Assembly: GCF_003231495.1 (NCBI RefSeq)
Contig: NZ_PQWO01000003.1
Span: forward strand, 120,001-152,000
From: Acaryochloris thomasi RCC1774
GTDB lineage: Bacteria; Cyanobacteriota; Cyanobacteriia; Thermosynechococcales; Thermosynechococcaceae
Reading direction: 5' to 3'
DNA length: 32,000 nucleotides
The translations under genes were made by a program, and so were the position numbers. Below the pieces are notes generated by a model. It searched no databases. It saw only the letters and a list, made by a program, of their open reading frames with translations, and was not told where the DNA came from. Positions 9,848-32,000 of this stretch are shown in pieces. Every line of letters begins with the position of its first letter. Positions within the stretch are counted from its first letter, which is position 1.

Positions 9848-9864
9848 TATCATCAAGAGATGGC

Positions 9865-11679: not shown

Positions 11680-11694
11680 ATCAAAAAAAGGACT

Positions 11695-12627
11695 ATGAGC
11701 AAGCCAGTTAATTCAATTGATGATCCTTTTTTTATAGTGTATGACTCTAGATCAGGCTCAACCTTCCTGGCTAATCTCCTTGTTAAATTTGCTGGGGCAG
11801 CAATACCGCCAGAGTCCAACTTCATTACGGGCCTGCTCTCTAAATACCCTAAGCACACAATAGATCACAGCTTTGATTTGGAAAAAGCGATAGAAGTTGT
11901 CTACGAAGACAGCAAGTTCAGAGACTGGAATTTAAGTCAATCAGAAATAGAACACTACATCCAAAAAAATTTTCCTATAGAGGTTAGAGATTTCGTACTT
12001 CAGATCTGTACCCTATATCGGAACAAGTACTATCCCAACTCTCAAGCTTTCGGCTTAAAAAAAGGTGTCTACCTCGATAGGCATAAAGAGATGAAAATGA
12101 TGTTCCCGAGTTCGAGGTTCATCGGCATACTCAGGGATGGAAGAGCTGTCTTCAATTCCAAAAAGCATAGTATTTACTCGGTAACAGGCCAAGCATTTGA
12201 GACAAACGCACGTAGCGCTGCTGAAGAGTGGTGCAGGATATATGGTCTTCTTCGAAAAGTAGACCAAAAGTATCCGAACGAAGTAGTAACGATACGATAT
12301 GAGGACATGATTCGAGAGCCAGGCGGCATTGTAAGTACGCTGTGTAATTTTCTCCACATACCTCAACTCAGCGAGTGTTCAGAAAAACAGCAAAGCTATG
12401 CTATTCCGGCTAGGTATGGCGACCTTCATTTGAATGTCAACAAAGAGCCGTTGGTAGAGAGAGCTACGGCCTGGCGCAAATCTCTGTCTGACGAAGAAGT
12501 CTATGTCTTTGAATCATGTGCATACCGCCAGCTACTTGCAGCAGGTTATCCGGTAGTCAACACCAGAATGCGGCTTAGGAGTAACCAAATCATAGAAAAA
12601 TGCAGGTCTTTCTTAAGTCTTGGATGA
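11695..12627 (+). CDS. PAPS-dependent sulfotransferase family protein
   Basis: 310-aa ORF. It has a 5'-phosphosulfate-binding loop YDSRSGSTFLANLL near the N-terminus and a 3'-phosphate-binding motif IGILRDGRAVFNS. Confidence 0.8.
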   Translation: MSKPVNSIDDPFFIVYDSRSGSTFLANLLVKFAGAAIPPESNFITGLLSKYPKHTIDHSFDLEKAIEVVYEDSKFRDWNLSQSEIEHYIQKNFPIEVRDFVLQICTLYRNKYYPNSQAFGLKKGVYLDRHKEMKMMFPSSRFIGILRDGRAVFNSKKHSIYSVTGQAFETNARSAAEEWCRIYGLLRKVDQKYPNEVVTIRYEDMIREPGGIVSTLCNFLHIPQLSECSEKQQSYAIPARYGDLHLNVNKEPLVERATAWRKSLSDEEVYVFESCAYRQLLAAGYPVVNTRMRLRSNQIIEKCRSFLSLG

Positions 12628-12658
12628 TTTTCCTTAACAACAGAGGATTGTAAATAAG

Positions 12659-13897
12659 GTGGCAAAAAAAATAAAATCTATCCTGTATGTATCTCTAGGA
12701 AATCTACCTTCAAAACTGGCTTCAAGTATTCAAGTTGCAAAGATGTCGCAGGCCATAGGGCAAAAGGTAAAGGATTTCGCACTGGTAACGAGCGGAGACA
12801 TTCTCTCAGCGATCAGGGGAATGGAAGCTGGCTTTCAGAGTTGGTACGCAATACGCCATAGATTCAAGTTGATACGCATACCTGTACATTTTCAGGCAAA
12901 GTATCCCTTTCCTAAAAATTACGCGAAGGAGAGATATTTTAAGTGGGCTGTTTTGTATGCCTGTCTTAGATCTCCAACCCTTGTGTATACTCGCTCCTAT
13001 CCCATCGTTTCTCTCTTATTGGAGACAGATATTCCGATTCTCTGGGAGCAACATGAGCTCCTTCCAGAGAAACTACCGGAAGATTCTCTCTACCATCGGC
13101 TTTTCGCCAGCGATAGTCTAGTGGGGCTAGTTACCCTTTCGCCCCTAATAGCGAAGAACTATATTAAAAACGGGCTGAGCACAGAAAAGGTCTTAATTGC
13201 ACACAGTGGTGTTGATATCAGCATTTTTCAACCCTATCGTTCCAAAAGCGAGGCTCGTAAACACTTATCTTTAACGGGTGATCGAAAAATCATTCTCTAC
13301 GGAGGTCATCTTTACGAACACAAAGGAATGGGGACTCTCGTAGAAACTGCTCTACGAATGCCAGAATGCAGGTTCATTTTGGTAGGAGGGTGGCAAGCGG
13401 ATATAGAAAGAGTAAAAGCCGCTTGTCGTCAAAAAAACGTGCGTAATGTAATTGTTGTCGGACACGTTTCTCAGTCCGTGTTGGCAATGTACCTCTACGC
13501 GGCAGATGTTCTGCTGCTACCAACTAGCAAGCAGTGGCAGCTTGCACAAACGACTAGTCCAATGAAGCTGTTTGAGTATATGGCAGTGCAAAGGCCCATT
13601 GTTGCTTCCGCATTGCCGAATATCATGACGGTGCTGCGCGACCGCGAAAATGCACTCTTGGCTGAGCCTGATCAGCCACAGTCTTTTCAACAAGCAATCA
13701 CGGAACTGCTTGAGAAGCCTGCGTTAGCAGATGAGATAGCAAAACAAGCGTTTCGAGAGGTCGATCAATACACCTGGGATAGTCGGGCTGAAATTATCTT
13801 GCGATTTGCAGAGGAAAGGCTAGAGAAGATGAATTTTCAGCCGAAGGCCAGAAGAAATATCTTATTCAAGTATCTCAAGACAATCACTTTTACATAG
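12659..13897 (+). CDS. glycosyltransferase, GT-B fold (family 4/group 1-like)
   Basis: 412-aa ORF with a GTG start. The C-terminal half carries ILYGGHLYEHKGM, FILVGGW and the KLFEYMAVQRPIVASALPN block typical of group-1 glycosyltransferases. Confidence 0.8.
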   Translation: MAKKIKSILYVSLGNLPSKLASSIQVAKMSQAIGQKVKDFALVTSGDILSAIRGMEAGFQSWYAIRHRFKLIRIPVHFQAKYPFPKNYAKERYFKWAVLYACLRSPTLVYTRSYPIVSLLLETDIPILWEQHELLPEKLPEDSLYHRLFASDSLVGLVTLSPLIAKNYIKNGLSTEKVLIAHSGVDISIFQPYRSKSEARKHLSLTGDRKIILYGGHLYEHKGMGTLVETALRMPECRFILVGGWQADIERVKAACRQKNVRNVIVVGHVSQSVLAMYLYAADVLLLPTSKQWQLAQTTSPMKLFEYMAVQRPIVASALPNIMTVLRDRENALLAEPDQPQSFQQAITELLEKPALADEIAKQAFREVDQYTWDSRAEIILRFAEERLEKMNFQPKARRNILFKYLKTITFT

Positions 13898-14261
13898 GAG
13901 GATGTCTAAGATTGTCATTCTCCTGACACTAATTTGAGGGTCAAACTGATACCTCAACAGATGATGTTGGTTGTTCCAAATTTAGCCGCAGGACTGATTT
14001 TGGATCTTTTTGATCAATGAATGAGCCATATCATGATTATGGTTCTATAATAATCTAACAGCCAGAAGTAAAGCTAGGCGTGACTTTGTCTCCGAGCCGC
14101 TGTGCTGAATTGCTCCTTCCGTTTTGAATGTGGCGGGTGCACTAGATCCAAACTATCTCATGCAGGAAATCTTGAGTCAAAGCATCCCTGAAGGCATGTA
14201 AGGCGAACATTTCCTATAGGATTGTCCCATTTCCTAATCTATTTAACTGGCTAAAGCGAGG

Positions 14262-15197
14262 ATGTCTGTCCGTATCTCTGCCATCATCTGTACGTTCAAT
14301 CGCTCTAAATATCTTCAGAAAGCAATTCAAAGTCTGATCGATCAGACGCTTGAAAAATATGAGTATGAGATTTTGGTCGTTGATAATTGTTCAGTAGATG
14401 ATACTCGAAAGGTTGTCGATGATAAATCTAGAATCGCTGGAAACTTACACTATATCTATGAATCCGAAATTGGACTCTCCAAAGCTCGCAATACGGGATG
14501 GGAGGCTGCGAAGGGTGAATATATTGCTTATTTGGATGATGATGCGATCGCAACTCCTCACTGGCTCGCAACCCTACTGCACAACTTTGAAAACATAACG
14601 CCTAAACCGGCTTGCATCGGTGGAAAAATCGATCCAATTTGGGAAGCTGAGCGACCCGAGTGGCTTCCAGACAAGTTACTGCCTTACCTAACGATATTAG
14701 ACTGGTCTAGCGAATTGATAATAATTGATGAGAACCAGTATATCGCTGGAGCCAATATGGCCTTTACTCAACAAGCATTAACTCTCGCAAATGGTTTTCA
14801 AACTAAATTTGGGCGCAGGGGTAAGAAGTTGCTTTCCAATGAAGAGCTTGTACTCCAAAATCAGATTCGAAAGCACGGTTTAGACATTTATTACAATCCT
14901 GAAGCTGTTGTCGAGCACCATGTTGTTGCTGATCGTTTACAGCAAAACTGGTTCGTAAAAAGAACGTACTGGCAAGGCGTATCTCGCGCCTTCTTAATTG
15001 TTAGTGAACAATCCCCCTCAGTTTTACAACAGTGGAAGATGGGAGTCTATTCACTGCTAAATTTGCTCAAATCACCTAAGCGGATTGTCAAGTCACTGCT
15101 TCCTAGTCGCAATCCTCGCTACCTACAGGCTAGATGTAGTACTGCAAGCAATATTGGATACATTGTGGGACTATTGACCGCAAAGGGTGGTGAATGA
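14262..15197 (+). CDS. glycosyltransferase family 2
   Basis: 311-aa ORF. GT-A N-terminus ISAIICTFNRSKYLQKAIQSLIDQT, DNCSVDDT, and the DxD region YLDDDAI. GAGG lies directly upstream of the ATG. Confidence 0.88.
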   Translation: MSVRISAIICTFNRSKYLQKAIQSLIDQTLEKYEYEILVVDNCSVDDTRKVVDDKSRIAGNLHYIYESEIGLSKARNTGWEAAKGEYIAYLDDDAIATPHWLATLLHNFENITPKPACIGGKIDPIWEAERPEWLPDKLLPYLTILDWSSELIIIDENQYIAGANMAFTQQALTLANGFQTKFGRRGKKLLSNEELVLQNQIRKHGLDIYYNPEAVVEHHVVADRLQQNWFVKRTYWQGVSRAFLIVSEQSPSVLQQWKMGVYSLLNLLKSPKRIVKSLLPSRNPRYLQARCSTASNIGYIVGLLTAKGGE

Positions 15198-16477
15198 CTG
15201 TTTCTGCAGCAGAGAGCCTCTGCCTAAAACTTGAGGAAGAAACCCGCACTCTCTTTTTAACTCGCTATGCCCCCTATCCGCCTTCTAGTGGAGCACCCTT
15301 ACGCAACTGGCAAAACATCAACGCTCTAATGTTGCTAGGGCCTGTCGCCGTTTTCTCCATTTCGGGTTTCAAGGGGGAAGCAGTCGATGATTCTGAGCTA
15401 CCACCCGGCTTAACGCTTTGGAAACACCACAAGTTAGATACATTTACTCAGCCAAGATCTATGGCTGAAAAATTCTCTCAGTGGCTTATTTCTGATCAGT
15501 TACCAGGTTCTAGGCTGCTGACTGATGTAGTGGTCAGTGAAAAACTAAAGAGCCTTATCCAGGAATTCAAGCCTAATCTCGTTATTTTTGAAGAACTCTG
15601 GCTGTATGCTTATCTGCCTGTTGTTAAGGAGTTCGGATGCCGAGTTATTTTAGACAACCACAATATAGAGGGTCCACTCTACTTAGATAAGCAAAGCCAA
15701 AATCAAGATCTTCTCAATCGAATTAAGATTTCATTTATCTTCCAAAAAATCAAAACGATAGAGCATCGGTTCGCAAATCAAGCCAATCAGGTTTGGCTTT
15801 GCAGCCAAGCTGACGCCGAACAATTTCTAGATCGTTACGAAACCTCTACACAATTGTGTGTTGTTCCAAATGGCGTTGATGTTAATTTCTACAGTAGTGT
15901 CCGCTTGGGTAACTGCCACCTGCCCAGAGATATAGCAGAAGACCAACAGGTTCTTTTGTTCATTGGGCGCTATTCATACACCCCCAATGCTGTTGCAGCC
16001 AGGCTCCTTTTAGAACAAATTTTTCCAAAACTCCAAAGACTTTATCCCGACTGTTTACTGGTGCTGGTTGGAGCATCACCGACCCAACAGATGCTAGCGA
16101 CATCTCAATCGGCTAAAAATATATGGATAACAGATTTTGTAAGTGATGTTCGCCCATATCTAGCTCTATCAACGGCTGTGATTGTTCCTCTCATAGATGG
16201 TGGGGGTACTCGCCTAAAAATTTTAGAGGCATTTGCTTCTGGCCGTCCTGTCGTTAGCACGACAAAAGGAGCTGAAGGTCTAAACGTTGAAGATGGGAAG
16301 CAGATTTTGATTAGAGATAGTGTTGATGAGTTAGTAAAAGGCATCGGTGATTTGTGGTCAGACTCTGATCATAAAGGCAAACTTATCGAAAGGGCTTATG
16401 AGCTCGTCAAGAACAACTACTCTTGGGAAGCGAATGCCAGAGCAATTATCAAAAACCTGAAATTTCTTCAACAATGA
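15194..16477 (+). CDS. glycosyltransferase, GT-B fold (family 4/group 1-like)
   Basis: 427-aa ORF with an ATGA start/stop overlap with the upstream GT2. LLFIGRYSYTPNAVAA and GGGTRLKILEAFASGRPVVSTTKGAEGL blocks. Confidence 0.85.
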   Translation: MTVSAAESLCLKLEEETRTLFLTRYAPYPPSSGAPLRNWQNINALMLLGPVAVFSISGFKGEAVDDSELPPGLTLWKHHKLDTFTQPRSMAEKFSQWLISDQLPGSRLLTDVVVSEKLKSLIQEFKPNLVIFEELWLYAYLPVVKEFGCRVILDNHNIEGPLYLDKQSQNQDLLNRIKISFIFQKIKTIEHRFANQANQVWLCSQADAEQFLDRYETSTQLCVVPNGVDVNFYSSVRLGNCHLPRDIAEDQQVLLFIGRYSYTPNAVAARLLLEQIFPKLQRLYPDCLLVLVGASPTQQMLATSQSAKNIWITDFVSDVRPYLALSTAVIVPLIDGGGTRLKILEAFASGRPVVSTTKGAEGLNVEDGKQILIRDSVDELVKGIGDLWSDSDHKGKLIERAYELVKNNYSWEANARAIIKNLKFLQQ

Positions 16478-16700
16478 AAACCCTAAAACTAGATCCAAAA
16501 ATAGATTTTTGCATATGTTTTTAAACAGAATATTCTGCAAAATAGGCATCAGGAAATTCATCCTCGACCAAAGATTGAAATGAGCACAAAAAGAGATGTT
16601 TTGATCATGGAATGACTAACCTTCTTTGTGCAAATGGAGGCTTTACTAAGCAGTAGATCATGGTTCTCTAAAAGTTTTTTCGGTTAAAAATAATGAAAAG

Positions 16701-17843
16701 GTGAAAGATTTGACAAGCCATCCAAAAATCAGTGTAGTCATGTCAGTGTATAACGGTGAGCTTTTCCTAGAGCAGTCTATGGAAAGTATTCTCTCTCAAA
16801 CCTACGCTAACTTTGAGTTGATATTGATCGACGACTGTTCTACGGATAACACCATCCAAATTCTAGAACATTACGCGCAGCGTGATTGGAGGATTAGGCT
16901 ATTCAGAAATAAGGAAAACATTGGATTAACTAAGTCGCTTAACAAGGGGTTAGAATTAGCGAAAGGAGAATACGTCGCCAGACAAGATGCTGACGATATT
17001 TCTTTGCCTGAAAGATTTGAAACGCAAGTAACATTTCTAGATAATCATCCAGAGATTGGATTAGTGTCTTGCAATATGGAAATTATTAACTTTGAAGGTC
17101 ATAAAACTGGAGAGCACAAAAGGGCCTGTTCGTCAGAATTTGTTAGCTGGTATCTCTTGTTCTACAATCGCTTGGCAGGGCACAGCCAGGTTACTTTCAG
17201 ACGGCAGCTCATAACAAAATTAGGGGGATACGATGAGCAGCGTCGCTTTAGTCAAGACTACGAACTTTGGTCACGGGTAGCGAAGGTCAGCAAGATCGCT
17301 ATTCTCTCAGAGACTTTGCTTAAGCAGAGAATACACAATTCCAGTGTCTCTACAACGAGGTCTTCAGAGCAAAGGAGCTACAGCCTCAGTCAGTCAAAGC
17401 ACAATATTGAGGAATTGATCAGCAAGGAAATCAACTTAGAGGAGGTCGTCCTTCTAAGAAATTTTTGGCTGAGCTGCTGGCCTCTCATTTCTAGTCTAGA
17501 AATTCGTGAGTCAATTTATAACTTAAACTCAAGGCTAATAGATATTTACCAGAGTTTTACCCAACAGAGTAGTCAGCGAGGTGACGATGTCAAAGCAGAG
17601 TTATCTCAATGCTTACGCATCTTAATTGGGAAGCAGTTCCTTGCGTGGGTGCAGTTTCCTATGAAAGCAGATCATACTCTATTCCCAAAGCTTTGGATCT
17701 CCTACTATGCCTTTTTCTGGTGTCCACAGGGGGTGCCAATTAGCTGGCTTATATTACTCTGGAGAACCTTACCAAAATGGCTGAAGCTGCCGGTTCGAAA
17801 GGGTTATAGGATTTCCAGGAATCTATTTAAAGTTAAGACATAG
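16701..17843 (+). CDS. glycosyltransferase family 2 (paralog A)
   Basis: 380-aa ORF with a GTG start. KISVVMSVYNGELFLEQSMESILSQTY, LIDDCSTDNT, ARQDADDIS. Clearly paralogous to the ORF at 18863-19939. Confidence 0.88.
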   Translation: MKDLTSHPKISVVMSVYNGELFLEQSMESILSQTYANFELILIDDCSTDNTIQILEHYAQRDWRIRLFRNKENIGLTKSLNKGLELAKGEYVARQDADDISLPERFETQVTFLDNHPEIGLVSCNMEIINFEGHKTGEHKRACSSEFVSWYLLFYNRLAGHSQVTFRRQLITKLGGYDEQRRFSQDYELWSRVAKVSKIAILSETLLKQRIHNSSVSTTRSSEQRSYSLSQSKHNIEELISKEINLEEVVLLRNFWLSCWPLISSLEIRESIYNLNSRLIDIYQSFTQQSSQRGDDVKAELSQCLRILIGKQFLAWVQFPMKADHTLFPKLWISYYAFFWCPQGVPISWLILLWRTLPKWLKLPVRKGYRISRNLFKVKT

Positions 17844-17853
17844 ATGCTACGAT

Positions 17854-18858
17854 ATGAGAAAGATATTAGTAACCGGCGCTGCTGGATTTATTGGTTTTCA
17901 TATATGCCAAGAATTACTAGCCAGAGATGAAGCTGTAATAGGTCTCGACAATTTAAATGATTACTATGACGTTGGCCTAAAGCAGGCACGTTTAGATAGG
18001 CTTACTATCCAGAAAAATTTTCAGTTCTTTCGAGTCGATTTAGCCGAGCGCACTGAAATTGCAAATTTATTCAGTTCCTGTAAACCTGATCTTGTCATTC
18101 ACCTAGCTGCTCAAGCTGGTGTACGTCATTCACTAACACATCCTCATGCATACATTGATAGTAATTTAGTTGGCTTTGCCAACATTCTAGAAGGATGCCG
18201 AAGTATAGAGGTTAAGCACCTCATTTTCGCTTCTTCTAGTTCAGTTTACGGGGCTAATACCAAAATCCCCTTTGCTGTTGGTGACTTTGTTGATCATCCT
18301 GTTAGTCTTTATGCAGCTACGAAAAAGGCGAACGAACTTATGGCCTTCACTTATAGCCACTTATACGCTTTGCCGGCGACTGGTTTGCGATTTTTCACGG
18401 TTTACGGGCCCTGGGGTAGACCTGACATGGCTTATTTTTCATTTACGCGCTCAATTCTTCGCGGCGAACCCATTAAGGTCTTTAACTATGGCAAGATGCG
18501 CCGAGACTTCACCTACATCCGTGATATTGTAGCGGGCATAGTAAAAATCTTGGAAAAGCCTCCTTCATATGCTGGAACTGATATGAAGCTTGGGTCAGAG
18601 TCAACTATTGCTCCCTACAAAATTTACAATATCGGTAACAATCAGCCTATCGAGCTGCTGGCTTTTATAGAAGTCTTAGAAAACTGCTTGGGTATCGAAG
18701 CTAATAAAAAGTTATTGCCGATACAGCCTGGGGACATGCTCGAAACCTATGCTGATATCAGCGAATTGTCACATGATATAGGTTTTAGGCCAAGCACCTC
18801 CATTGAATCTGGCCTAAGGTATTTTGTCGACTGGTACCGTTCATACTATGGAGTGTAG
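17854..18858 (+). CDS. NAD-dependent nucleotide-sugar epimerase, UDP-glucuronate 4-epimerase-like (SDR)
   Basis: 334-aa ORF. Rossmann motif GAAGFIGFH, catalytic YAATKKANE (YxxxK), and FFTVYGPWGRPDMAYF, colinear with CapI/LpsL/GAE-type UDP-GlcA 4-epimerases. The exact substrate is inferred. Confidence 0.85.
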   Translation: MRKILVTGAAGFIGFHICQELLARDEAVIGLDNLNDYYDVGLKQARLDRLTIQKNFQFFRVDLAERTEIANLFSSCKPDLVIHLAAQAGVRHSLTHPHAYIDSNLVGFANILEGCRSIEVKHLIFASSSSVYGANTKIPFAVGDFVDHPVSLYAATKKANELMAFTYSHLYALPATGLRFFTVYGPWGRPDMAYFSFTRSILRGEPIKVFNYGKMRRDFTYIRDIVAGIVKILEKPPSYAGTDMKLGSESTIAPYKIYNIGNNQPIELLAFIEVLENCLGIEANKKLLPIQPGDMLETYADISELSHDIGFRPSTSIESGLRYFVDWYRSYYGV

Positions 18859-18862
18859 GCTT

Positions 18863-19939
18863 ATGTCTATATTAGCTCCTAAAATCAGCGTGTTAATGGG
18901 AGTCTACAACGGATCTTGCTATCTGCGAGAATCTGTTAGCAGTATCCTCAATCAGACTTTTTCTAATTTTGAGTTTGTTATTATTGATGATGCTTCTAAT
19001 GATAATACATGGGATATATTGACAAGTCTCTCAAAGCAAGACGAACGTATTAAGCTGATCAGAAACAAGCAAAATATTGGCTTGACTCGCTCATTAAACA
19101 AAGGTCTTGTCATTGCTCAAGGCGAGCTGATCGCACGACAAGATGCAGACGATATCTCTTTACCAATTCGCTTCGAGAAACAAGTCCAATTTTTAGATCA
19201 GCGGCCCAGCGCTGTTCTCGTCTCTGGATGTTATGAGTACATCGATGCTGAAGGCATTTCCTTCAAAACAGTTCGGGTCGCAGGTGGTCCAGACATAACG
19301 GCGTGGTATTTGCTGTTCTACAACCGTATTGGGGCTCACGGGCTGGCGATGTTCCGGCGGCAGGTGGTCGCAGAAATCGGTGGCTATTCGGAAGACTATC
19401 GCTACAGTCAAGATTACGAGCTGTGGTCAAGATTAGTTGATACGGGTGATCTAGTAGTTTTGCCAGACGTTCTTCAACTCTATCGGCGCGATCACGACAG
19501 CAGTATCTCAGTCAAATTTAGCTCAGTTCAGCAAGATCTTGCTTTACAAGTAACAGCTCAAAATATTACGAACGTCATTGGAGAAGGAATGAGCAAAGAA
19601 GCTCTCATTGACCTAAGAAATTTCTGGGTAGGACAATATCTCGAGATTCAAGATATCGGTGCTCTCTACGCAAACCTTAAAAAGATACATCGGGCATTTA
19701 TACAGCAGCGTTCGAAGATAGCTTCTTACTCAGGCACAGGTGTGAGTCGCAGGTTAGGAGATGTTGTACTTTTACGCTTTTTGTGTTGGACGAATTTATT
19801 TAGCTCTTCTCATGACTGGCATCGAAAAGCTAAAGTTATACGTTGTGCATTTCTATGGAACCCAGTAAAAGCCATTAATTTATTCTCGAGACGAGCATTC
19901 CGTAACTTACCTCGCTCAATCAAAACTTTTCCGATATAA
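18863..19939 (+). CDS. glycosyltransferase family 2 (paralog B)
   Basis: 358 aa from ATG 18863 (MSILAPKISVLMGVYNG...). IIDDASNDNT, ARQDADDIS. The ORF-track start at 18824 would overlap the epimerase by 35 nt and adds non-conserved residues. Confidence 0.86.
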   Translation: MSILAPKISVLMGVYNGSCYLRESVSSILNQTFSNFEFVIIDDASNDNTWDILTSLSKQDERIKLIRNKQNIGLTRSLNKGLVIAQGELIARQDADDISLPIRFEKQVQFLDQRPSAVLVSGCYEYIDAEGISFKTVRVAGGPDITAWYLLFYNRIGAHGLAMFRRQVVAEIGGYSEDYRYSQDYELWSRLVDTGDLVVLPDVLQLYRRDHDSSISVKFSSVQQDLALQVTAQNITNVIGEGMSKEALIDLRNFWVGQYLEIQDIGALYANLKKIHRAFIQQRSKIASYSGTGVSRRLGDVVLLRFLCWTNLFSSSHDWHRKAKVIRCAFLWNPVKAINLFSRRAFRNLPRSIKTFPI

Positions 19940-20233
19940 GAAGGGTCTGCATTCGTAGCTTTTTAGTCAATCTGTTATCGATTTCACTGTATATGATTTG
20001 GCATTAGTTTTAGCTAATGAGTATGCTATATTGCGTAGAATCTCGGCTACTAAGCTTATTGCTCAAGCAATCCAGCGAACATTTCCATGACATGGATTTG
20101 TAGAGTAAGGGTCTTATCATCGTGTGAACGCAGCCTATCTGAGGATGCTGACTCAGCTCGTGGCTCTCACTACAGTATTTTTTAAGCCTTTAACAGTCAC
20201 CCAGCATCTCAACTATTCCCCGTCGTTAATTTC

Positions 20234-21328
20234 ATGATTCAGACGACTAAGAAATATCTAAACGTTTTTTTCTGGCCTTCTTGGCCGAACAATCCTTACC
20301 AAGTGCTGCTCGCTCATGCCCTAGAGCCGCTCGGGGTGAAGGTTGAGATTGTTCCATCTAGCAATCGGCTACTGCGTGCAGGCGTTCAAGAACAACAACC
20401 CGCCTATCTCCACTTTCATTCTCTGTACTATCTGTTCACAGCTCCTAAACCGTTCATTGCTTGGCTCCGTTCTATCAAAGCCCTTTTTTGGCTGTTAACG
20501 CTGAGACTGAGCGGCAAAACTTTGATTTGGACGGTTCACGATCTCCAAAATCACGATGATCGAAATCCTTGGGTAGATTGGTTCTTCAGCTTCTGTTTTT
20601 CTAGGCTAGCGCAAGGTATTATCCTTCACTCAGAGCGCATTCAGCAGCAGTTTGTGCAAAGATTCAGAATTGCCGAAACGCGGAAGCTCTACGTTATTCC
20701 TCACGGCCACTATCTTGAGTGTTATCCCAACCACATTCAGCCTAGTGAGGCTCGTCACAGCCTAAATCTCAGAAAAGACCAGCTTACTTTTTTGTTCTTG
20801 GGTCTAATTCGTCCCTACAAGGGAGTGCCTGAACTAATTTCAGCATTCCAAAGTTTGTCCACAGAGTCGGCTCAACTTGCGATCGCAGGCAAACCGGCCT
20901 CAGAAGAAATCGGCAACCAAATTAGAGACGCCATTCAGGACGACTGCAATATTCATCTCTGGCCGACATACATTGAAGAAGACCAGATTCAGGTCTACAT
21001 GAACGCCGCGGACGTCGTAGTTTTTCCCTATCGCAGAGTTCTGACATCTGGCTCTATTGTCTTAGCAATGTCTTTTGGTCGCGCTTGTATCGCACCTCAA
21101 GAGGGTGGGATACAAGATGTCCTTGATTCCTCCGGTGCATTTCTATACGACTCTAGGCAGCCGATAGGGCTTGCTCAAGCCATGCAAGCGTCCATTGAGA
21201 ATCGAGAACTCCTGGCAACAATGGGCACATACAATCGTCAAAAGGTACAGCAATGGAGCTGGCAAGATATTGCACAGCAGACCCATGCTGTTTACCAAGC
21301 GAGCGTTAGCGCGGGAAAAATATTGTGA
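20234..21328 (+). CDS. glycosyltransferase, GT-B fold (family 4/group 1-like)
   Basis: 364-aa ORF. C-terminal blocks FLFLGLIRPYKGV and VVVFPYRRVLTSGSIVLAMSFGRACIAPQEGG. Confidence 0.78.
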   Translation: MIQTTKKYLNVFFWPSWPNNPYQVLLAHALEPLGVKVEIVPSSNRLLRAGVQEQQPAYLHFHSLYYLFTAPKPFIAWLRSIKALFWLLTLRLSGKTLIWTVHDLQNHDDRNPWVDWFFSFCFSRLAQGIILHSERIQQQFVQRFRIAETRKLYVIPHGHYLECYPNHIQPSEARHSLNLRKDQLTFLFLGLIRPYKGVPELISAFQSLSTESAQLAIAGKPASEEIGNQIRDAIQDDCNIHLWPTYIEEDQIQVYMNAADVVVFPYRRVLTSGSIVLAMSFGRACIAPQEGGIQDVLDSSGAFLYDSRQPIGLAQAMQASIENRELLATMGTYNRQKVQQWSWQDIAQQTHAVYQASVSAGKIL

Positions 21329-22290
21329 CGCACCCTTCGAATATTTCCACTTCGTCAACGTCAACAAAGCCCCTCGTTACCATCATTATCAACAACTACA
21401 ATTATGAGCAATTTATTAGCGATGCAATCAATAGCGCCTTGGCCCAAACCTATCACCCAGTTGAGATAATTGTTGTTGATGACGGTTCCACGGATCGCTC
21501 TCGAGACGTCATCAACAGCTATGGTTCTAAATTGAATCCAATCTTCAAAGAGAATGGGGGACAAGCTTCTACTTTCAATACGGGGTTTAAAGCAAGTCAA
21601 GGAGACGTTATTTGTCTCCTTGACTCCGATGATTTATTCCACCCAGAGAAGGTATTGGAGGTAGTTTCAGCATTTCAAGCGGACGAAAATATTCGCTGGT
21701 TCTTTCATCAACTCAAAGTGGAGCACTTGTCTACAAAAGAGGTTATTAGACTCTCTCCCAACAGGGATTCAGGCCCCTACGATTTTAGAGAACCCATGCG
21801 AGCCGGTTCAAGTGTAGAATTTTCACCGCCTTCAACATCAGGGTTGTGCTTTTCTCGTGTATTACTCCAGGAGATCCTTCCCATGCCTGAGGCCGAAGAT
21901 ATCGTTATGAGCGACCTCTATCTGAAGCTTTCTTCAATGGCTTTATACAAAGGATTTTATCTCAATCGTCCTCTTGGAGTGGTCAGAGTCCACAGCAATA
22001 ATCGATACACAGAGAAGCGTGGTAGACACCTCCTAAAGGGAAATATCGAGATCACTACAGCTTATTACTTGCGACAAAAGTGGAGATTTTTGAGTCGGCT
22101 ATCCAATAATTTATTTTGCTTAGGTATGTCTGACCTATCTAAAGCAAAAAAGGTTGATTTGAGATATCAAAATACTGGATACATATTATCAAAGTACTTG
22201 CGGTCTATATCACCGTTGGGCCAACCGAAGATCAAGCTAAAGATAAGTTTTTTCTGCCTTAAAATACTTTTGAAGCGGCTAAAAAACTAG
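21325..22290 (+). CDS. glycosyltransferase family 2
   Basis: 321-aa ORF with a GTG start in a GTGA overlap with the upstream stop. VTIIINNYNYEQFISDAINSALAQTY, VVDDGSTDRS, LLDSDD. Confidence 0.85.
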   Translation: MTHPSNISTSSTSTKPLVTIIINNYNYEQFISDAINSALAQTYHPVEIIVVDDGSTDRSRDVINSYGSKLNPIFKENGGQASTFNTGFKASQGDVICLLDSDDLFHPEKVLEVVSAFQADENIRWFFHQLKVEHLSTKEVIRLSPNRDSGPYDFREPMRAGSSVEFSPPSTSGLCFSRVLLQEILPMPEAEDIVMSDLYLKLSSMALYKGFYLNRPLGVVRVHSNNRYTEKRGRHLLKGNIEITTAYYLRQKWRFLSRLSNNLFCLGMSDLSKAKKVDLRYQNTGYILSKYLRSISPLGQPKIKLKISFFCLKILLKRLKN

Positions 22291-26665: not shown

Positions 26666-27571
26666 CTAAGACACTGCGATAGGGACAGCATGCTTTTGAA
26701 TCCAATTCTGAAGCAGAGGATTCACCACTTCAGGCGCTTCATCTTGAGGGCAATGACCAATCCCGTCTAGGGCGATAAAGTCCTCAACCGCTGGAAACTT
26801 TGCCAGTTCTCGCCCCTGATCAATGGGTTCCCAAGGATCTTCTTTACCCCAGAGCATTAATACGGGGCAAGTGACTTGAGGCAACAGATCTTCGGGAAGT
26901 GGGCCTTGCGAATACTGGATAAAAGCTAAAAATACTGCCGGTGCGCCTGCTTCAAAGGCCGGTCCCAGCAAAAGATCAACGAGTTCATCGGTGACGGCCT
27001 CTTTGCGGCCATAGGCCTGAAGCAAAATCTTACGGACGGCCTTGGGTTTCGCCACGCCCTTGAAAAAAGCTTCGCCCAGCAGCCGATAGGCCAACACCTT
27101 CTGCAGAACTGGAGCCGACATTCGCCGATACCAGGGAATTTCTTGGCGCTTGCGTTCGTGCAGCAGCCGCAGTGAACAGTCCAGCATACTGACGCCCAGA
27201 ATCTGGCTTGGGTTCATGACCGCTGCCTGGAGCGCCACAATACAGCCAATCGAGTTTCCCACCAGAAAAGCCGGACCGCCCACAATCTCTTGGCAAAAAT
27301 CGAGTACCTGCTGCCCCCAGGTTTCGAAGATATATTCCACGTTCTGACCGGGCTGCAGGGGGCCAGGGGCAGGCTTATCAGAACCACCAAACCCAACCAG
27401 ATCAATAGCGTAGACACGACTCGTTTCCGCTAGCTCAGCAATATTTTTACGCCAGTGCGCGCTAGAGGCTCCAAAGCCGTGGATCAAAACAACCGCAGGT
27501 CCCTGCTCACCTGCGAACTGATAACGAATCCGAAAGCCTTGCCATTGCCAAGTTTCAGTTTGAGGCTGCAT
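26666..27571 (-). CDS. alpha/beta hydrolase fold protein
   Basis: 301-aa ORF. HGFGAS oxyanion region, nucleophile elbow GNSIGC, and a C-terminal GHCPQDE histidine. Substrate unknown. Confidence 0.85.
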   Translation of the reverse strand: MQPQTETWQWQGFRIRYQFAGEQGPAVVLIHGFGASSAHWRKNIAELAETSRVYAIDLVGFGGSDKPAPGPLQPGQNVEYIFETWGQQVLDFCQEIVGGPAFLVGNSIGCIVALQAAVMNPSQILGVSMLDCSLRLLHERKRQEIPWYRRMSAPVLQKVLAYRLLGEAFFKGVAKPKAVRKILLQAYGRKEAVTDELVDLLLGPAFEAGAPAVFLAFIQYSQGPLPEDLLPQVTCPVLMLWGKEDPWEPIDQGRELAKFPAVEDFIALDGIGHCPQDEAPEVVNPLLQNWIQKHAVPIAVS

Positions 27572-27679
27572 GATGGGTCCCTAGAAGTCTTCATATATTG
27601 TAATATTCCTGCGAGTCTGTGTCGTTGCGACTCGGTCAATCTCGCTATAGTCGAAGAGAAGCAACTGCTGCGAAGAACT

Positions 27680-29065
27680 ATGACCTCTACACTCAATCGC
27701 AATACTAAGGAACCCCAAAAAGAGCCTTTGACGTTTGCTGATATTCCTGCGTCGAATGCACCGAGTTGGGTGCAGCTTCTGCAAACGGTCTTTAATCCGA
27801 TACCTGAACTAGAGCGATCTCGCCAACGCTTCGGTGACGTTGTTCGCGCTGGGGCGGCGGGCTTTCCGCCGATGGTTTTTGCGGGCAGCCCTGAAGGGGT
27901 TGAGGCAATTTTGGCGGCTGATACAGAGCTGTTTGAAGTGGGCAGTGGCAACAAGGCACTCCGACCTTTACTGGGAGAGCACTCCCTAATACAGCTTGAT
28001 GGTGCTCCCCATCGGCGGCAGCGCAAATTAATGATGCCTTCTTTTCACGGTGCGAGCGTGCAGCGCTATGGCGAGGTGATGGCGGAGGTGACGGAGAATG
28101 TCATGTCTCAGTGGCAGCCGGGGCAGGTCTTTCCGATTCATTCGTCGATGCAGAAGATTACCCTGAGGGTGATTTTAAAAGCCGTGTTTGGGTTAACAGA
28201 GGGAGAGCGCTTTGAGCAGCTACAGAACCTACTGTGTGAGTTTACCGATGCGTTTAATGCGCCCTGGCAGTCTTTGTTTTTATTTCTGGAGCCATTGCAG
28301 AAGGATCTAGGAAGCTGGAGCCCCTGGGGGCAGTTTTTGCGACGTAAAGCAAAGATCAATCAGCTTTTATTAGATGAGATTCATGATCGCCGTCAGCAGC
28401 CCCCCCAAGACGATGTACTCAGCCTGCTTTTAGCTGCTCGAGATGAAGAGGATGGCTCGGCGCTATCTGACCTTGAGCTACGTGATGAGCTAATGACGCT
28501 GTTGTTTGCAGGCCATGAGACGACGGCATCGGTTCTCGCTTGGGCGATCTATTGGATTCACTCCCAGCCAGAAGTAAAGCAAAAGGTAATGGCTGAGCTA
28601 TCGGATCTAGGGGCAGATCCAGACCCAATGGAGGTGGCAAAGCTTCCTTATCTCACAGCAGTCTGCAATGAGGCGCTACGAATTTATCCGGTGGTGCTAT
28701 TTACCTTTGGGCGTATTCTCAAGCAGCCTTATAACTTTATGGGCTACAACCTGGAGCCGGGGATTATGTTGGCTCCCTGTATTTATTTGCTGCACCACAA
28801 TCCGAAGCTTTACCCTGAGCCTAAAACCTTCCGGCCTGAACGATTTTTGGAGCGACAATTTTCGCCCTATGAATTCATTCCCTTCGGCGGCAGCAATCGG
28901 CGGTGTTTGGGATATACCTTTGCACTGTTTGAACTTAAGGTTGTGCTGGCAAAAATGTTGGGTTCAGCAAAGCTTGAGTTAGCGAGCGATCGCCCTTCAG
29001 TTCCGGTTCGTCGTGGTGTCACCTTTATGCCTTCAGAGGGCGTTCCGGTAAGGCCTCAGGGGTGA
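27680..29065 (+). CDS. cytochrome P450 (possibly CYP120-like)
   Basis: 461 aa from ATG 27680. I-helix AGHETTAS, ExxR (EALR), heme loop FGGSNRRCLG. The ORF-track start at 27455 would overlap the divergent hydrolase gene by 117 nt and is rejected. Confidence 0.9.
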   Translation: MTSTLNRNTKEPQKEPLTFADIPASNAPSWVQLLQTVFNPIPELERSRQRFGDVVRAGAAGFPPMVFAGSPEGVEAILAADTELFEVGSGNKALRPLLGEHSLIQLDGAPHRRQRKLMMPSFHGASVQRYGEVMAEVTENVMSQWQPGQVFPIHSSMQKITLRVILKAVFGLTEGERFEQLQNLLCEFTDAFNAPWQSLFLFLEPLQKDLGSWSPWGQFLRRKAKINQLLLDEIHDRRQQPPQDDVLSLLLAARDEEDGSALSDLELRDELMTLLFAGHETTASVLAWAIYWIHSQPEVKQKVMAELSDLGADPDPMEVAKLPYLTAVCNEALRIYPVVLFTFGRILKQPYNFMGYNLEPGIMLAPCIYLLHHNPKLYPEPKTFRPERFLERQFSPYEFIPFGGSNRRCLGYTFALFELKVVLAKMLGSAKLELASDRPSVPVRRGVTFMPSEGVPVRPQG

Positions 29066-29113
29066 TGATATTTATACAAGGTATACATCGATAGATTTGA
29101 GTTGCGATCGCAC

Positions 29114-29380
29114 ATGGTATTTAAAGTCACATCCCCCAAGTTTGAGCAGGAGTTTGAGCGCTGGACCGATGCCCTAGAGCAGGCTAAAGAACTAGTCCCG
29201 GACTGCAAGGGCATCTTTCAAGAGGTCAGAATCCTTGAAGACGGCGAGCTGGTTTGGGTGAAAGATCGGTTTCATCGCTACCCACAGTTTATGGGTCCGG
29301 GAACCTACAACCGACTGGCAAGGCTATTCCTGCAAGAAGACATGGAAGCGGAGCAGGTTAAACAGGATGACGCCAGCTAA
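29114..29380 (+). CDS. small hypothetical protein
   Basis: 88 aa from ATG 29114 (the ORF-track TTG at 29102 is in frame). MVFKVTSPKFEQEFERWTDALEQAKELV..., balanced composition, no family recognised. Confidence 0.5.
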   Translation: MVFKVTSPKFEQEFERWTDALEQAKELVPDCKGIFQEVRILEDGELVWVKDRFHRYPQFMGPGTYNRLARLFLQEDMEAEQVKQDDAS

Positions 29381-29498
29381 AAAGATCGAGTCCAGCAGCA
29401 ATTGCACCTATCACTTTCGCTAGGTCTAACGGTCTAGCCTCCCGTTTGCAAGAGCTTGAGAAACCTCTTCCTATTCATACAGACAGACTTGTCGATTG

Positions 29499-29541
29499 TG
29501 TAACTACCGATACGAGACAGCCTAGGCATCACCTTTAAGGT
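29499..29541 (+). promoter_or_regulatory. NtcA-type (class II) promoter upstream of the Nit1C cluster
   Basis: TGTA-ACTACCGA-TACG (GTA-N8-TAC at 29500-29513), then exactly 22 nt, then TAAGGT (TAN3T, 29536-29541). The predicted TSS is near 29548, about 119 nt upstream of ATG 29667. Confidence 0.6.
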
Positions 29542-29666
29542 GCCTTTAAGTGATGACCGCTCTTGAAAATTTTTCGACCCGAGCCAATGGATTGCAGAGA
29601 TAAATTTCTTTGCATGTCTCGACTCGAGGGTCATCACGCATCCACGACCTCGTGAAGGATTTTTAT

Positions 29667-30149
29667 ATGCCAGAAGTAACAGCTCCCGCTCATAAGGCGG
29701 GCGATTTCTTTGTTGACTATGAAGAGAAAGTCTTTCCTGATGTGCAGGCAGACCCCGGTGAAAAAGCACTTGTAACCTTCCACACAATTGCCTTTGAAGG
29801 CTCGATTGGCTTGGTGAACTTGCTCCAGGCCACGCGCCTGATTCGGAAGGGCTTTGACACCTCAGTCTTGCTCTACGGTCCTGGGGTAACACTGGGCATC
29901 CAGCGCGGTTTCCCAAAGCTGGGCGATGAAGCCTTCCCCGGACATATGGCGATGAATAATCAGCTCGTTAAATTGATGGAAGAAGGCGGTAAGGTTTACG
30001 CCTGTCGGTTCGCACTCCAGGCGCTTTGCGGGCATGGTGAACCCTCCTTAATCCCCGGTATTCGCCCGATTAATCCCCTAGATGTCTTAGACATTGTGCT
30101 GATGCATCGCAAAGAAGGGGCATTTATCCTCGATACCTGGACAACCTAA
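29667..30149 (+). CDS. Nit1C-cluster conserved hypothetical protein (NitB / Sll0783-like nitrogen-starvation response protein)
   Basis: 160 aa from ATG 29667, with GAAGGA 7 nt upstream. The stop lies 2 nt before the nitrilase start. Position, size and context match the first conserved gene of Nit1C clusters. The family assignment comes from gene context and memory, not alignment. The ORF-track start at 29610 adds 19 residues with no SD. Confidence 0.7.
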
Positions 30150-30151
30150 CC

Positions 30152-31171
30152 GTGGACTATTCCCGAACCATACGAGCGGCAGCGGCTCAGATTAGTCCGG
30201 TTTTGTTTAGTCGAGACGGGACTACTGAAAAGGTTTTAGATGCGATCTCATCCGCAGCCAAGGACGGGGTAGAGCTACTGGTTTTTCCAGAAACCTTTAT
30301 CCCTTACTATCCGTATTTTTCGTTCGTGCAGCCTCCAGTGCTGATGGGTAAAGAACATATGCGCCTCTATGAAGAGGCCGTCACAGTTCCTAGCCCTGTC
30401 ACCGATGCGGTTGGTCAAGCCGCTCGCACCCACAGCATGGTAATTGTTTTGGGCGTCAATGAACGGGACGCCGGATCGCTCTATAACACTCAGCTTATTT
30501 TTGATGCCGACGGTACTCTGCTACTGAAGCGGCGCAAAATCACCCCCACCTATCACGAGCGCATGGTGTGGGGGCAGGGTGACGGGGCAGGCCTCCAGGT
30601 TTTAGACACCGCCGTTGGTCGATTAGGTGCCCTAGCCTGTTGGGAACATTACAACCCCTTGGCGCGGTTTGCGTTGATGGCTCAGCACGAGCAGATCCAC
30701 TGCGGTCAGTTCCCAGGGTCAATGGTCGGTCAAATCTTCGGTGACCAAATGGAGGTGACCATGCGCCACCATGCTTTAGAGTCAGGCTGTTTTGTGGTCA
30801 ACGCCACCGGCTGGCTTTCCGAAGAGCAGAAGCAGCAAATTGTTACCGATGAAAAATTGCAGAAGGTGCTGAGCGGAGGCTGCTACACCGCCATCATTAG
30901 TCCCGAAGGAGTACCGCTGTGTGAGCCAATTACGCAGGGGGAAGGGCTGGCTGTGGCAAATCTAGATTTTGCCTTAATCACCAAGCGCAAGCGCATGATG
31001 GATTCTGTCGGGCACTATGCCCGCCCCGACTTACTGCGGCTACTGCTTGACCAAGAGGCTTGGTCCGTTCTGGAGCAATCTGCTGGTCAATCACCGGTGA
31101 CAGATGCTGAGAATAGCCCTCTGCTAACGACTGCACCTGTTCCCATGTCTCTTACGACAGAGGCACTTTAA
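30152..31171 (+). CDS. nitrilase (Nit1C / Nit6803-type)
   Basis: 339-aa ORF with a GTG start. Carbon-nitrogen hydrolase triad Glu ([12 protein letters not shown]), Lys ([13 protein letters not shown]) and Cys ([16 protein letters not shown]), with the CWEH nitrilase signature. Confidence 0.92.
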
Positions 31172-31273
31172 AGCCTTGCGGACGGGGTGATCACCACAGT
31201 AATCACAATATATTTTACCCTAGAGCTGCAGCATCATGACAAGACCTGTCAGCGCTGGTTCGCTCTGCATTGG

Positions 31274-31348
31274 CCCCCCCGGCCCCCCAATTCTGGGGGG
31301 AGAAAGCTAGAGGCTTGGGTCATTCCCTTTGATTGCGAGGAATTGGGG
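31274..31348 (+). promoter_or_regulatory. C-run/G-run element with alternative pairings between the nitrilase and radical SAM genes
   Basis: C7 (31274-31280) GG C6 (31283-31288) AATTCT G6 (31295-31300) forms a local hairpin. CCCCAATTCT (31285-31294) is also complementary to GGAATTGGGG (31339-31348). Function unknown. Confidence 0.35.
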
Positions 31349-31381
31349 AAACACAAGTGAAATGCTTTTGGTTCCTTCTAA

Positions 31382-32000
31382 ATGAACAAACAACAACTGA
31401 TTACAGAGCTGCAGTCCAGTGGCCTAAAGCTGGTGGACCCTAACGTAGGGGCTGCCGGACGCCGAGGCGGAGCCGGTCCTTCAGACCATAAGGCGGTCAC
31501 CATTGAGGGGACGACGGTGATGGTGCCGATTTACACCGGCACTGCCGATCAGTCTCCCTACACGGCGGAAGCGGATACCCTATTGCTCAAGCGAGAAGGT
31601 AAAGCCGTTGCCCCGCTCCACTTTCCGGAGCAGCCTCAGTTTTATGGTCTGGAGACTACCGACGGCATTCCCTACTGGAAGATTGCGCTGCTCCACAGCC
31701 ATGATGTGCTAGCGACGACGGTGCAGCAGACCTGTAAGCGATACCGCGATCCAGAAACGGTCTGTCAGTTCTGTGCCATTGAAAAGTCGCTGGATGCTGA
31801 CCGCACCATTGCCCGTAAAACGCCGGAACAGCTGGCTGAAGTCGCTGAAGCAGCCGTGCGCCTTGATGGGGTAACCCAAATGGTGATGACCACGGGGACG
31901 CCCAATACGTTAGATCGCGGTGCAGCCTATCTGACCGACTGCGCCCGAGCTGTGAAGGCCCGAGTGGATTTGCCGATTCAGGCCCAGTGCGAACCGCCGG
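31382..32000 (+). CDS. radical SAM protein of the Nit1C cluster (NitD / MSMEG_0568-type), 5' part; continues beyond window
   Basis: Open frame from ATG 31382 (preceded by an in-frame TAA) to the window end, 206 codons: MNKQQLITELQSSGLKLVDPNVGAAGRRGGAGPSDHKAV...TCKRYRDPETVCQFCAIEKS...VMTTGTPN. It has a Cys cluster ending CQFC and lies immediately after the nitrilase, as in Nit1C loci. Absent from the ORF track because no stop lies in the window. Confidence 0.8.
   Translation, partial: MNKQQLITELQSSGLKLVDPNVGAAGRRGGAGPSDHKAVTIEGTTVMVPIYTGTADQSPYTAEADTLLLKREGKAVAPLHFPEQPQFYGLETTDGIPYWKIALLHSHDVLATTVQQTCKRYRDPETVCQFCAIEKSLDADRTIARKTPEQLAEVAEAAVRLDGVTQMVMTTGTPNTLDRGAAYLTDCARAVKARVDLPIQAQCEPP

Follow-up and report, generated by a model that had tools for sequence, protein, structure and literature searches.

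The end of a 32,000-nt stretch of Acaryochloris thomasi RCC1774 DNA (contig NZ_PQWO01000003.1, positions 120,001 to 152,000; the whole stretch is called the window here) was found to carry three genes of the Nit1C cluster, which was defined in 2005 (PMC1199592): nitB for a conserved hypothetical protein of 160 amino acids (aa), nitC for a nitrilase and nitD for a radical S-adenosylmethionine (SAM) protein. The three genes are of the sll0783-0785 / MSMEG_0572-0571-0568 type. As a whole, the locus is best explained as the promoter and the three leading genes (nitB-nitC-nitD) of a cyanobacterial Nit1C operon that serves as a nitrogen-starvation response unit, and this reading was given a probability of roughly 85%. 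The elements concerned are the following:

29667 (ATG)-30149 (TAA), + strand: nitB-like gene (gene A), 160 aa, MSMEG_0572/Sll0783 family (TIGR04044)
30152 (GTG)-31171, + strand: nitC-like nitrilase gene, 339 aa, Nit6803-family branch-1 (subfamily 1) nitrilase (TIGR04048)
31172-31381, + strand: spacer of 210 nt between the nitrilase and radical SAM genes
31382 (ATG)-32000, + strand: 5' part of the nitD-like gene, MSMEG_0568-family variant radical SAM protein (TIGR04043)
29500-29541, + strand: NtcA-type promoter, GTAACTACCGATAC (GTAN8TAC), then 22 nt, then TAAGGT (-10 element TAN3T)

The original prediction had named a 160-aa conserved hypothetical protein, a CWEH nitrilase 2 nt downstream and a radical SAM protein, and all three were located. 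The gap between the stop codon of nitB and the start codon of nitC is indeed 2 nt. The radical SAM gene stands third in order, as had been claimed, but it is not directly adjacent to the nitrilase gene, from which the 210-nt spacer separates it. This gene is cut by the window end, with 206 of about 360 codons present. The three products were scored against the curated cut-offs of NCBIfam, and Pfam was also searched. NitB reached 284.5 bits with TIGR04044 (cut-off 109.85; profile positions 1-158 of 159), the nitrilase 581.7 bits with TIGR04048 (cut-off 502.6), and the radical SAM fragment 323.5 bits with TIGR04043 (cut-off 303.7; profile positions 1-203 of 354). Since all three products scored above cut-off, a chance match is excluded. 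Thus, the proposed assignment to Nit1C, i.e., to the MSMEG_0565-0572 and sll0783-0787 sets, was borne out by the curated TIGRFAM equivalog models of this hidden Markov model (HMM) check.

In a mechanical listing of open reading frames (ORFs), the frame of nitB opens at TTG 29610. When the protein is begun at the ATG, its alignment to the family profile sets in at residue 2; the homologues are 160 aa long and begin with MPEVT. A second frame of exactly 160 aa, TTG-started and on the minus strand (29434-29916), overlaps the promoter and the 5' half of nitB; it is rich in arginine and serine, has the appearance of a shadow ORF and is distinct from the real 160-aa gene on the + strand.

The nitrilase carries the CWEH motif at residues 163-166, and the catalytic residues E47, K129, E136 and C163 are all present. 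It matched PDB entry 3WUY (Nit6803 of Synechocystis) with an expectation value (E) of 7e-177 over residues 2-326, while the next-best solved relatives, at E 1e-72 or weaker, were other helical nitrilases and cyanide dihydratases; the Pfam family CN_hydrolase was matched at 1.5e-57. The 3WUY orthologue shows a preference for planar vinylic nitriles and dinitriles. Purified orthologous nitrilases preferred fumaronitrile and cinnamonitrile with poor efficiency and were poor on cyanide, and their physiological role was stated as unclear (PMC7815647). A second carbon-nitrogen hydrolase in the window (210-1724, - strand) is the apolipoprotein N-acyltransferase Lnt, with LNT_N and CN_hydrolase domains, and is unrelated to the Nit1C nitrilase.

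Related loci were collected by scanning one genome per species with the nitrilase, which yielded 80 loci (best identity 84%), nearly all of them cyanobacterial (Nodosilinea, Phormidesmidales, Leptolyngbya, Pseudanabaena and others). The gene order conserved hypothetical protein-nitrilase-radical SAM protein, which the original prediction had likened to Nit1C, was the same in 80 of 80 loci. The cluster families were checked by HMM in three loci, and the gene order was surveyed by tblastn. Confirmed across the three loci were a GNAT acetyltransferase (TIGR04045), an AIR-synthase-like protein (TIGR04049), a flavin oxidoreductase (TIGR04046; NitH), a GT4 glycosyltransferase (TIGR04047) and the MSMEG_0570 protein of roughly 90 aa (TIGR04042; NitG), the GNAT and AIR-synthase-like families being confirmed in loci L007 and L012. 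The typical cyanobacterial order was (flavoprotein, on either strand)-NitB-nitrilase-radical SAM-GNAT-AIR-like-(glycosyltransferase-small protein). GNAT was found within 800 nt after the radical SAM gene in 56 of the 61 loci with enough sequence, and GNAT followed by the AIR-like gene in 51 of them. A glycosyltransferase gene lay downstream in 23/48 loci and the small NitG gene in 25/48. The flavoprotein gene was located immediately upstream of nitB in 42 of 56 loci (divergent in 25, co-directional in 17).

None of the genes for GNAT, the AIR-like protein, the glycosyltransferase or NitG (TIGR04042) was found in the window (1-32000). Because GNAT and AIR-like genes follow in so many of the relatives, both are expected past 32000, and judging from this synteny they very likely lie just beyond the window end. 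The flavoprotein gene, the glycosyltransferase gene and the small NitG gene could be either present or absent there. Of the cluster order given in the original prediction, the continuation with GNAT and AIR-like genes is very likely, whereas the flavoprotein gene, which had been placed last, is normally upstream of nitB in cyanobacteria.

A GTAN8TAC box followed after 22 nt by TAN3T is the architecture of NtcA-activated cyanobacterial promoters. Across both strands of the 32-kb window, the element upstream of nitB is the single match to it, compared with 0.06 expected from shuffles. Its NtcA box (GTAACTACCGATAC, 29500-29513) is 167 nt upstream of the nitB start codon, compared with about 70-110 nt in most relatives, and a predicted transcription start near 29548 would give a 5' untranslated region (5'UTR) of about 119 nt. 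The same architecture was found no more than 350 nt upstream of nitB on the coding strand in 46 of 66 related loci, with an expectation of 0.007 per 350 nt. No sigma-70 consensus promoter was found in 28900-32000, which is consistent with an activator-dependent promoter that has no -35 box. These features point to a predicted NtcA-activated promoter.

In related loci with the flavoprotein gene divergent from nitB, there are usually two GTAN8TAC boxes about 200 nt apart in the shared intergenic region, e.g., at 9070-9130 and 9270-9330 of L012, and also in L001, L006, L008 and L013. These paired boxes mirror the double NtcA peak observed by chromatin immunoprecipitation sequencing (ChIP-seq) in the bidirectional sll0783/slr0821 promoter of Synechocystis (PMC5714215). 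The window has no divergent partner gene, in agreement with its having only one box. Nitrogen deprivation induces the sll0783-0787 cluster (bioRxiv 10.64898/2026.08.10.743958), and ammonium represses it (PMC10094980). Other nitrogen regulators act on the cluster outside the cyanobacteria: GlnR induces it more than 500-fold in Mycobacterium smegmatis (PMC6039565), and the sigma-54 regulator NitA acts on it in Pseudomonas (PMC11049912).

The first protein of the operon was compared with its family. In a word-indexed search, 3209 homologues were found, and to the best 120 of these NitB was 82-93% identical. Identity was 84% to Synechocystis Sll0783 (P0043), 84-86% to proteobacterial members (Tistrella, Zavarzinia, Robbsia) and 88% in the median to the counterparts across 74 loci. 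An exhaustive HMMER scan of 1.84 billion representatives showed a tight and isolated family with 311 clusters at 50% identity, mostly fragments. Among the proteins of the cluster, NitB/Sll0783 is the best conserved, and its identity is unusually high for a 160-aa protein without known function. Conservation of this degree could reflect many constrained surfaces, such as a complex or carrier role would impose, or else a recent horizontal spread.

From its size and a YGPG...ACRFAL pattern, the protein had been guessed to resemble small DsrE-like alpha/beta proteins. The pattern was found with YGPG at residues 70-73 and ACRFAL at residues 112-117. The protein gave no significant PDB sequence match and no Pfam family at E<=0.01, the Pfam family DsrE (PF02635) scoring 14.6 bits (E 0.039), below the gathering threshold of 22.7. 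Of 10 members of the NitB family, 6 had DsrE as their best or sole Pfam family, and the divergent member P0185 passed the threshold with 24.8 bits. An AlphaFold2 model with a mean predicted local distance difference test (pLDDT) value of 63.5 and a predicted template modelling (pTM) score of 0.60 was searched against the PDB with Foldseek. The top four matches were all DsrE/DsrF-like (3pnx_A, 3pnx_B, 3mc3 and 2hy5_B; E 6e-4 to 1.5e-2), with template modelling (TM) scores of 0.43-0.54. The profile of the NitB family had 3mc3 (DsrE/DsrF-like) as its sole PDB match (E 0.13), in which GGKVYACRF was aligned with NGVKMYVCVQS so that Cys113 was placed on a Cys. Since three independent weak signals (Foldseek, Pfam DsrE and the family profile) converge, the guess is weakly but consistently supported in the form of a remote homology to DsrE/YchN-like proteins.

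Cys113 (in KVYACRF) was invariant in 38 of 38 close homologues and present in 13 of 14 diverse ones. It is probably equivalent to the active-site Cys of DsrE; as the alignment with 3mc3 is weak, this equivalence is probable rather than proven. With the DsrE/DsrF/TusD (YchN-like) sulfur-relay proteins NitB shares predicted alternating strands and helices and a conserved Cys after a beta-strand at a helix start (KVYACRF compared with MYVCVQS). It differs from them by about 30 additional N-terminal residues, by an identity of 11-17% to the solved structures in structural alignments, and by a neighbourhood without genes for sulfur oxidation or tRNA thiolation. The likeness is not new: the same ORF was given a YchN-like fold by Podar et al. 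in 2005 (PMC1199592), and MSMEG_0572 was called DsrE-like by Yang et al. in 2018 (PMC6039565).

The nitD product belongs to the radical SAM superfamily as a variant-motif member. Its cluster motif is CX9CX2C (C118, C128, C131) and not the canonical CX3CX2C, and this spacing was found in 75 of 75 homologues from related loci. Other non-canonical spacings of the radical SAM motif are known, to which CX9CX2C is comparable. The fragment scored 83 bits with NF045502 (variant_rSAM) of NCBIfam and, as a fragment only, 22.7 bits with Pfam Radical_SAM (PF04055), below the threshold of 29.5. A full-length homologue had no informative relative in the PDB (best ThiH at E 0.009), and an AIR-like homologue had only weak matches there to PurL, ThiL and SelD. 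None of the PDB searches with the NitB, radical SAM and AIR-like proteins narrows the chemistry further.

The 210-nt spacer before nitD contains a hairpin, CCCCCCA-AATT-TGGGGGG, at 31283-31300 without a T-run. Neither the spacer nor the 5'UTR had an Rfam match at E<=1, and no terminator-like site or repeat family was found in the spacer. With a fold z-score of -0.57 it is no more structured than its shuffles. The spacing between the nitrilase and radical SAM genes differs among the related loci.

Three known systems were used for comparison. First, the Nit1C cluster of Synechocystis sp. PCC 6803 (sll0783-sll0784-sll0785-sll0786-sll0787-ssl1464) has the same order and the same three families as the window; the nitrilase matches Nit6803/3WUY with all catalytic residues conserved, and an NtcA-type promoter is located upstream in both. 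In Synechocystis, sll0783 and the flavoprotein gene are transcribed in opposite directions from one intergenic region (PMC1199592), whereas the window has no flavoprotein gene, a single NtcA box, and a cytochrome P450 gene and a 92-aa orphan ORF upstream. Loss of sll0783 lowers polyhydroxybutyrate (PHB) via a disturbed balance of reduced nicotinamide adenine dinucleotide phosphate (NADPH) (PMC3901256).

Second, the nitA/nitBCDEFGH clusters of Pseudomonas (P. oleovorans CECT 5344 as well as P. fluorescens NCIMB 11764) encode the same NitB, NitC and NitD families in the same order. They differ in that the divergent sigma-54 activator NitA takes the place of NtcA and that the flavoprotein gene, nitH, is the last of the operon. 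The Pseudomonas cluster responds to nitrogen status, and the one in the window is predicted to do so from its promoter sequence. The Pseudomonas cluster has also been tied experimentally to growth on cyanide and nitriles: mutants in nitA, nitB and nitC failed to grow when cyanide or aliphatic nitriles were the nitrogen source (PMC5939895).

Third, the gpr cluster of M. smegmatis (MSMEG_0565-0572), the source of the TIGR04042-04050 names, comprises the same families and is induced by nitrogen starvation. It differs by GlnR control, by a fusion of GNAT and AIR-like proteins (MSMEG_0567) and by the inclusion of an amidase and a glycosyltransferase. The gpr cluster raises the NADPH/NADP ratio and gives peroxide resistance (PMC6039565).

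The phenotypes that the original prediction had named, i.e., induction by nitrogen starvation and impaired PHB accumulation in Synechocystis (PMC3901256, PMC5714215) and cyanide or nitrile tolerance in Pseudomonas, for which growth on these compounds is described (PMC5939895), agree with the literature. So does its statement that the physiological substrate is unidentified, which is still how the cluster is described (PMC7815647, PMC11049912). A 2024 survey still listed NitB and NitG without known function (PMC11049912), and in the literature up to 2026 no paper was found that identifies a substrate or product of Nit1C.

Under the favoured explanation, NtcA would bind the GTAN8TAC box at 29500-29513 when nitrogen is short, and transcription would begin from about 29548, a step drawn from sequence, conservation and the Synechocystis ChIP-seq. 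The transcript would yield NitB and, 2 nt further on, NitC, presumably by translational coupling, and past the 210-nt spacer NitD. By synteny, the GNAT acetyltransferase and the PurM/AIR-synthase-like ATP-dependent enzyme would be encoded next, beyond the window. NitC would convert a nitrile to the carboxylate and ammonia through Cys163 (thioimidate mechanism) with Glu47, Lys129 and Glu136; this chemistry is established for the 3WUY orthologue and is predicted here from the conserved residues. NitB, a putative DsrE/YchN-fold protein with Cys113 where DsrE/TusD bear a reactive thiol, is probably a thiol-based partner or carrier needed by the nitrilase in vivo. In Pseudomonas, the phenotype of nitB mutants copies that of nitC mutants. 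NitD and the enzymes encoded downstream may prepare the nitrogen-containing substrate or process it further.

The net role would be the salvage of ammonia from a nitrile-bearing compound during nitrogen starvation, with an NADPH/redox side effect. Nitrogen salvage is favoured because three unrelated nitrogen regulators (NtcA, GlnR and the sigma-54 activator NitA) control the cluster in three phyla and because the Pseudomonas mutant phenotypes point likewise.

Several observations weigh against this explanation. The usual upstream flavoprotein gene is missing from the window, and the downstream cluster genes fall outside it. The pLDDT of the NitB model is only 63.5, and its structural matches have TM-scores of 0.43-0.54. 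The purified orthologous nitrilases were catalytically inefficient on every nitrile assayed (PMC7815647). The phenotypes in Synechocystis and M. smegmatis are of a redox kind (NADPH, PHB, peroxide) and do not concern the nitrogen source (PMC3901256, PMC6039565). Furthermore, nitrile scavenging leaves the strict co-conservation of the radical SAM protein, GNAT, the PurM-like protein, the flavoprotein and often the glycosyltransferase unexplained, and this enzyme set looks more like a biosynthetic or tailoring pathway.

A biosynthetic pathway is the main rival, which explains the accessory enzymes and the NADPH phenotypes better than salvage, and yet was considered clearly the less probable account. 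The radical SAM protein, GNAT, the PurM-like protein, the flavin monooxygenase and GT4 might build a small, possibly redox-active metabolite in nitrogen starvation; the nitrilase would then perform one maturation step, NitB would be a thiol carrier or chaperone, and the purpose would be other than salvage. Strict co-conservation holds for eight families with tailoring-type chemistry, and the glycosyltransferase and NitG genes downstream, with GT4 in about half of the cyanobacterial loci, fit such a pathway. So do the NADPH/NADP ratio and peroxide resistance conferred by the gpr cluster in M. smegmatis (PMC6039565) and the altered NADPH balance of the sll0783 mutant (PMC3901256). The kinetics of the nitrilase on generic nitriles are poor, and the idea of a "biosynthetic metabolon" is in print (PMC7815647). 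However, no product has ever been reported, and the nitrogen-status regulators NtcA, GlnR and sigma-54 NitA usually govern acquisition genes. In Pseudomonas, mutants of nitB and nitC no longer grow with nitriles or cyanide as the nitrogen source (PMC5939895), and in several loci neither a flavoprotein nor a glycosyltransferase gene lies within 10 kb in either direction. A biosynthetic product was kept as a tentative alternative.

A special form of pathway, in which the nitrile is not scavenged but made inside it, is improbable. The PurM-like enzyme might, by analogy with HypE, dehydrate an amide or thiocarboxamide with ATP on Cys113 of NitB, and NitC might hydrolyse the nitrile formed. If NitB were a covalent substrate carrier of this kind, its extreme conservation (84-86% between cyanobacteria and proteobacteria) would be explained.

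Detoxification and assimilation of cyanide as the main role is less likely than nitrogen salvage and was considered unlikely overall. Cyanide would react with 2-oxoacids to cyanohydrins, which NitC would hydrolyse, or a persulfide on NitB would trap the cyanide. Nit1C is genetically tied to cyanotrophy in Pseudomonas and other bacteria (PMC5939895, PMC7815647), the same role was inferred for an Antarctic Synechococcus-like population (PMC9716671), and the DsrE-like cysteine could bear a persulfide. Cyanide, acetone cyanohydrin and mandelonitrile, however, were poor substrates or non-substrates of the purified orthologue (PMC7815647). Induction in Synechocystis and M. smegmatis requires nitrogen starvation only and not cyanide, and the window shows no sign of cyanide metabolism such as a cyanase, a rhodanese or a cyanide-insensitive oxidase.

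The genes upstream of nitB are as follows:

29102-29380, + strand: orphan ORF, 92 aa, no Pfam or NCBIfam family
27680-29065, + strand: cytochrome P450, nearest families generic (CYP3/4/102/120-like)
26666-27571, - strand: alpha/beta hydrolase, divergent from the P450 gene

When the flavoprotein of L007 was used in a tblastn search, no flavoprotein gene (TIGR04046, NitH) was found in the window (1-32000). The P450 gene and the 92-aa ORF occupy the position of the nitH flavoprotein gene. This is a minority arrangement, similar in kind to that of 14 of the 56 related loci, which have no adjacent flavoprotein gene and yet keep nitB through nitF; in 7 of these 14 loci there is none within 10 kb on either side. 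Thus, the flavoprotein gene need not adjoin the cluster.

A truncated or decaying remnant, of which only nitB-nitC-nitD would be left while the other genes were lost or scattered and Nit1C function was gone, is likewise less likely than an intact operon and was regarded as very improbable. The absence from the whole window of a flavoprotein gene that is adjacent upstream in three quarters of the related loci (42/56), the P450 gene and the orphan ORF in its place, and the position of the downstream part outside the window would fit such decay. Against it, the three reading frames are intact with full-family-level scores, and the NtcA promoter is intact. The loci without an adjacent flavoprotein gene that keep nitB through nitF, and the presence of GNAT after the radical SAM gene in 56 of 61 loci, also speak against a remnant.

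It is similarly doubtful, and about as improbable as a nitrile made inside the pathway, that the P450 (27680-29065) displaced the flavin monooxygenase NitH in a non-orthologous swap of oxygenases. A link between the P450 and the cluster is not supported: as a recurrent cluster partner it was rejected, a related P450 being found near only 1 of 80 loci (L021, Waterburya, 51% identity), and L021 also keeps the flavoprotein gene. The 92-aa ORF at 29102-29380 was considered as NitG/MSMEG_0570 and rejected, having no NCBIfam or Pfam match and resembling neither NitG nor anything in the 80 loci. In the mechanical listing, the P450 ORF is GTG-started (27455-29065, 536 aa) and runs 117 nt into the 5' end of the alpha/beta-hydrolase gene. 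A start at ATG 27680, which suits the Pfam P450 domain, does away with this overlap.

Elsewhere in the window, a long co-directional polysaccharide island of low G+C content (0.39-0.46, compared with about 0.52 in the flanks) extends over 7665-22290 on the + strand. It holds genes for an ABC-2 exporter permease and ATPase, a sulfotransferase, at least six glycosyltransferases and an NAD-dependent epimerase, and also codes for a 604-aa protein with a DCC1-like thiol-disulfide oxidoreductase domain. The island may serve to make a sulfated glycan, and its origin may be horizontal.

Taken together, the window holds the start of another, probably intact cyanobacterial copy of Nit1C, an ordinary one of a cluster already named by curated HMMs and annotation pipelines. 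Its local peculiarities (no adjacent flavoprotein gene, a P450 gene upstream, the 2-nt gap between nitB and nitC, and a predicted 5'UTR that exceeds those of most relatives) are small matters, and they do not recur in any way that would indicate new biology. With 46 of 66 loci, a canonical NtcA promoter upstream of nitB is the rule across cyanobacteria, which generalises the single ChIP-seq observation in Synechocystis. This point and that of flavoprotein adjacency do not open the substrate question, which is better approached in Synechocystis, Pseudomonas or M. smegmatis, for which genetics exist. Nit1C is among the most widely conserved bacterial clusters of unexplained chemistry, and the links drawn for it in various phyla span nitrogen starvation, the redox balance, the accumulation of PHB, resistance to peroxide and the use of cyanide.

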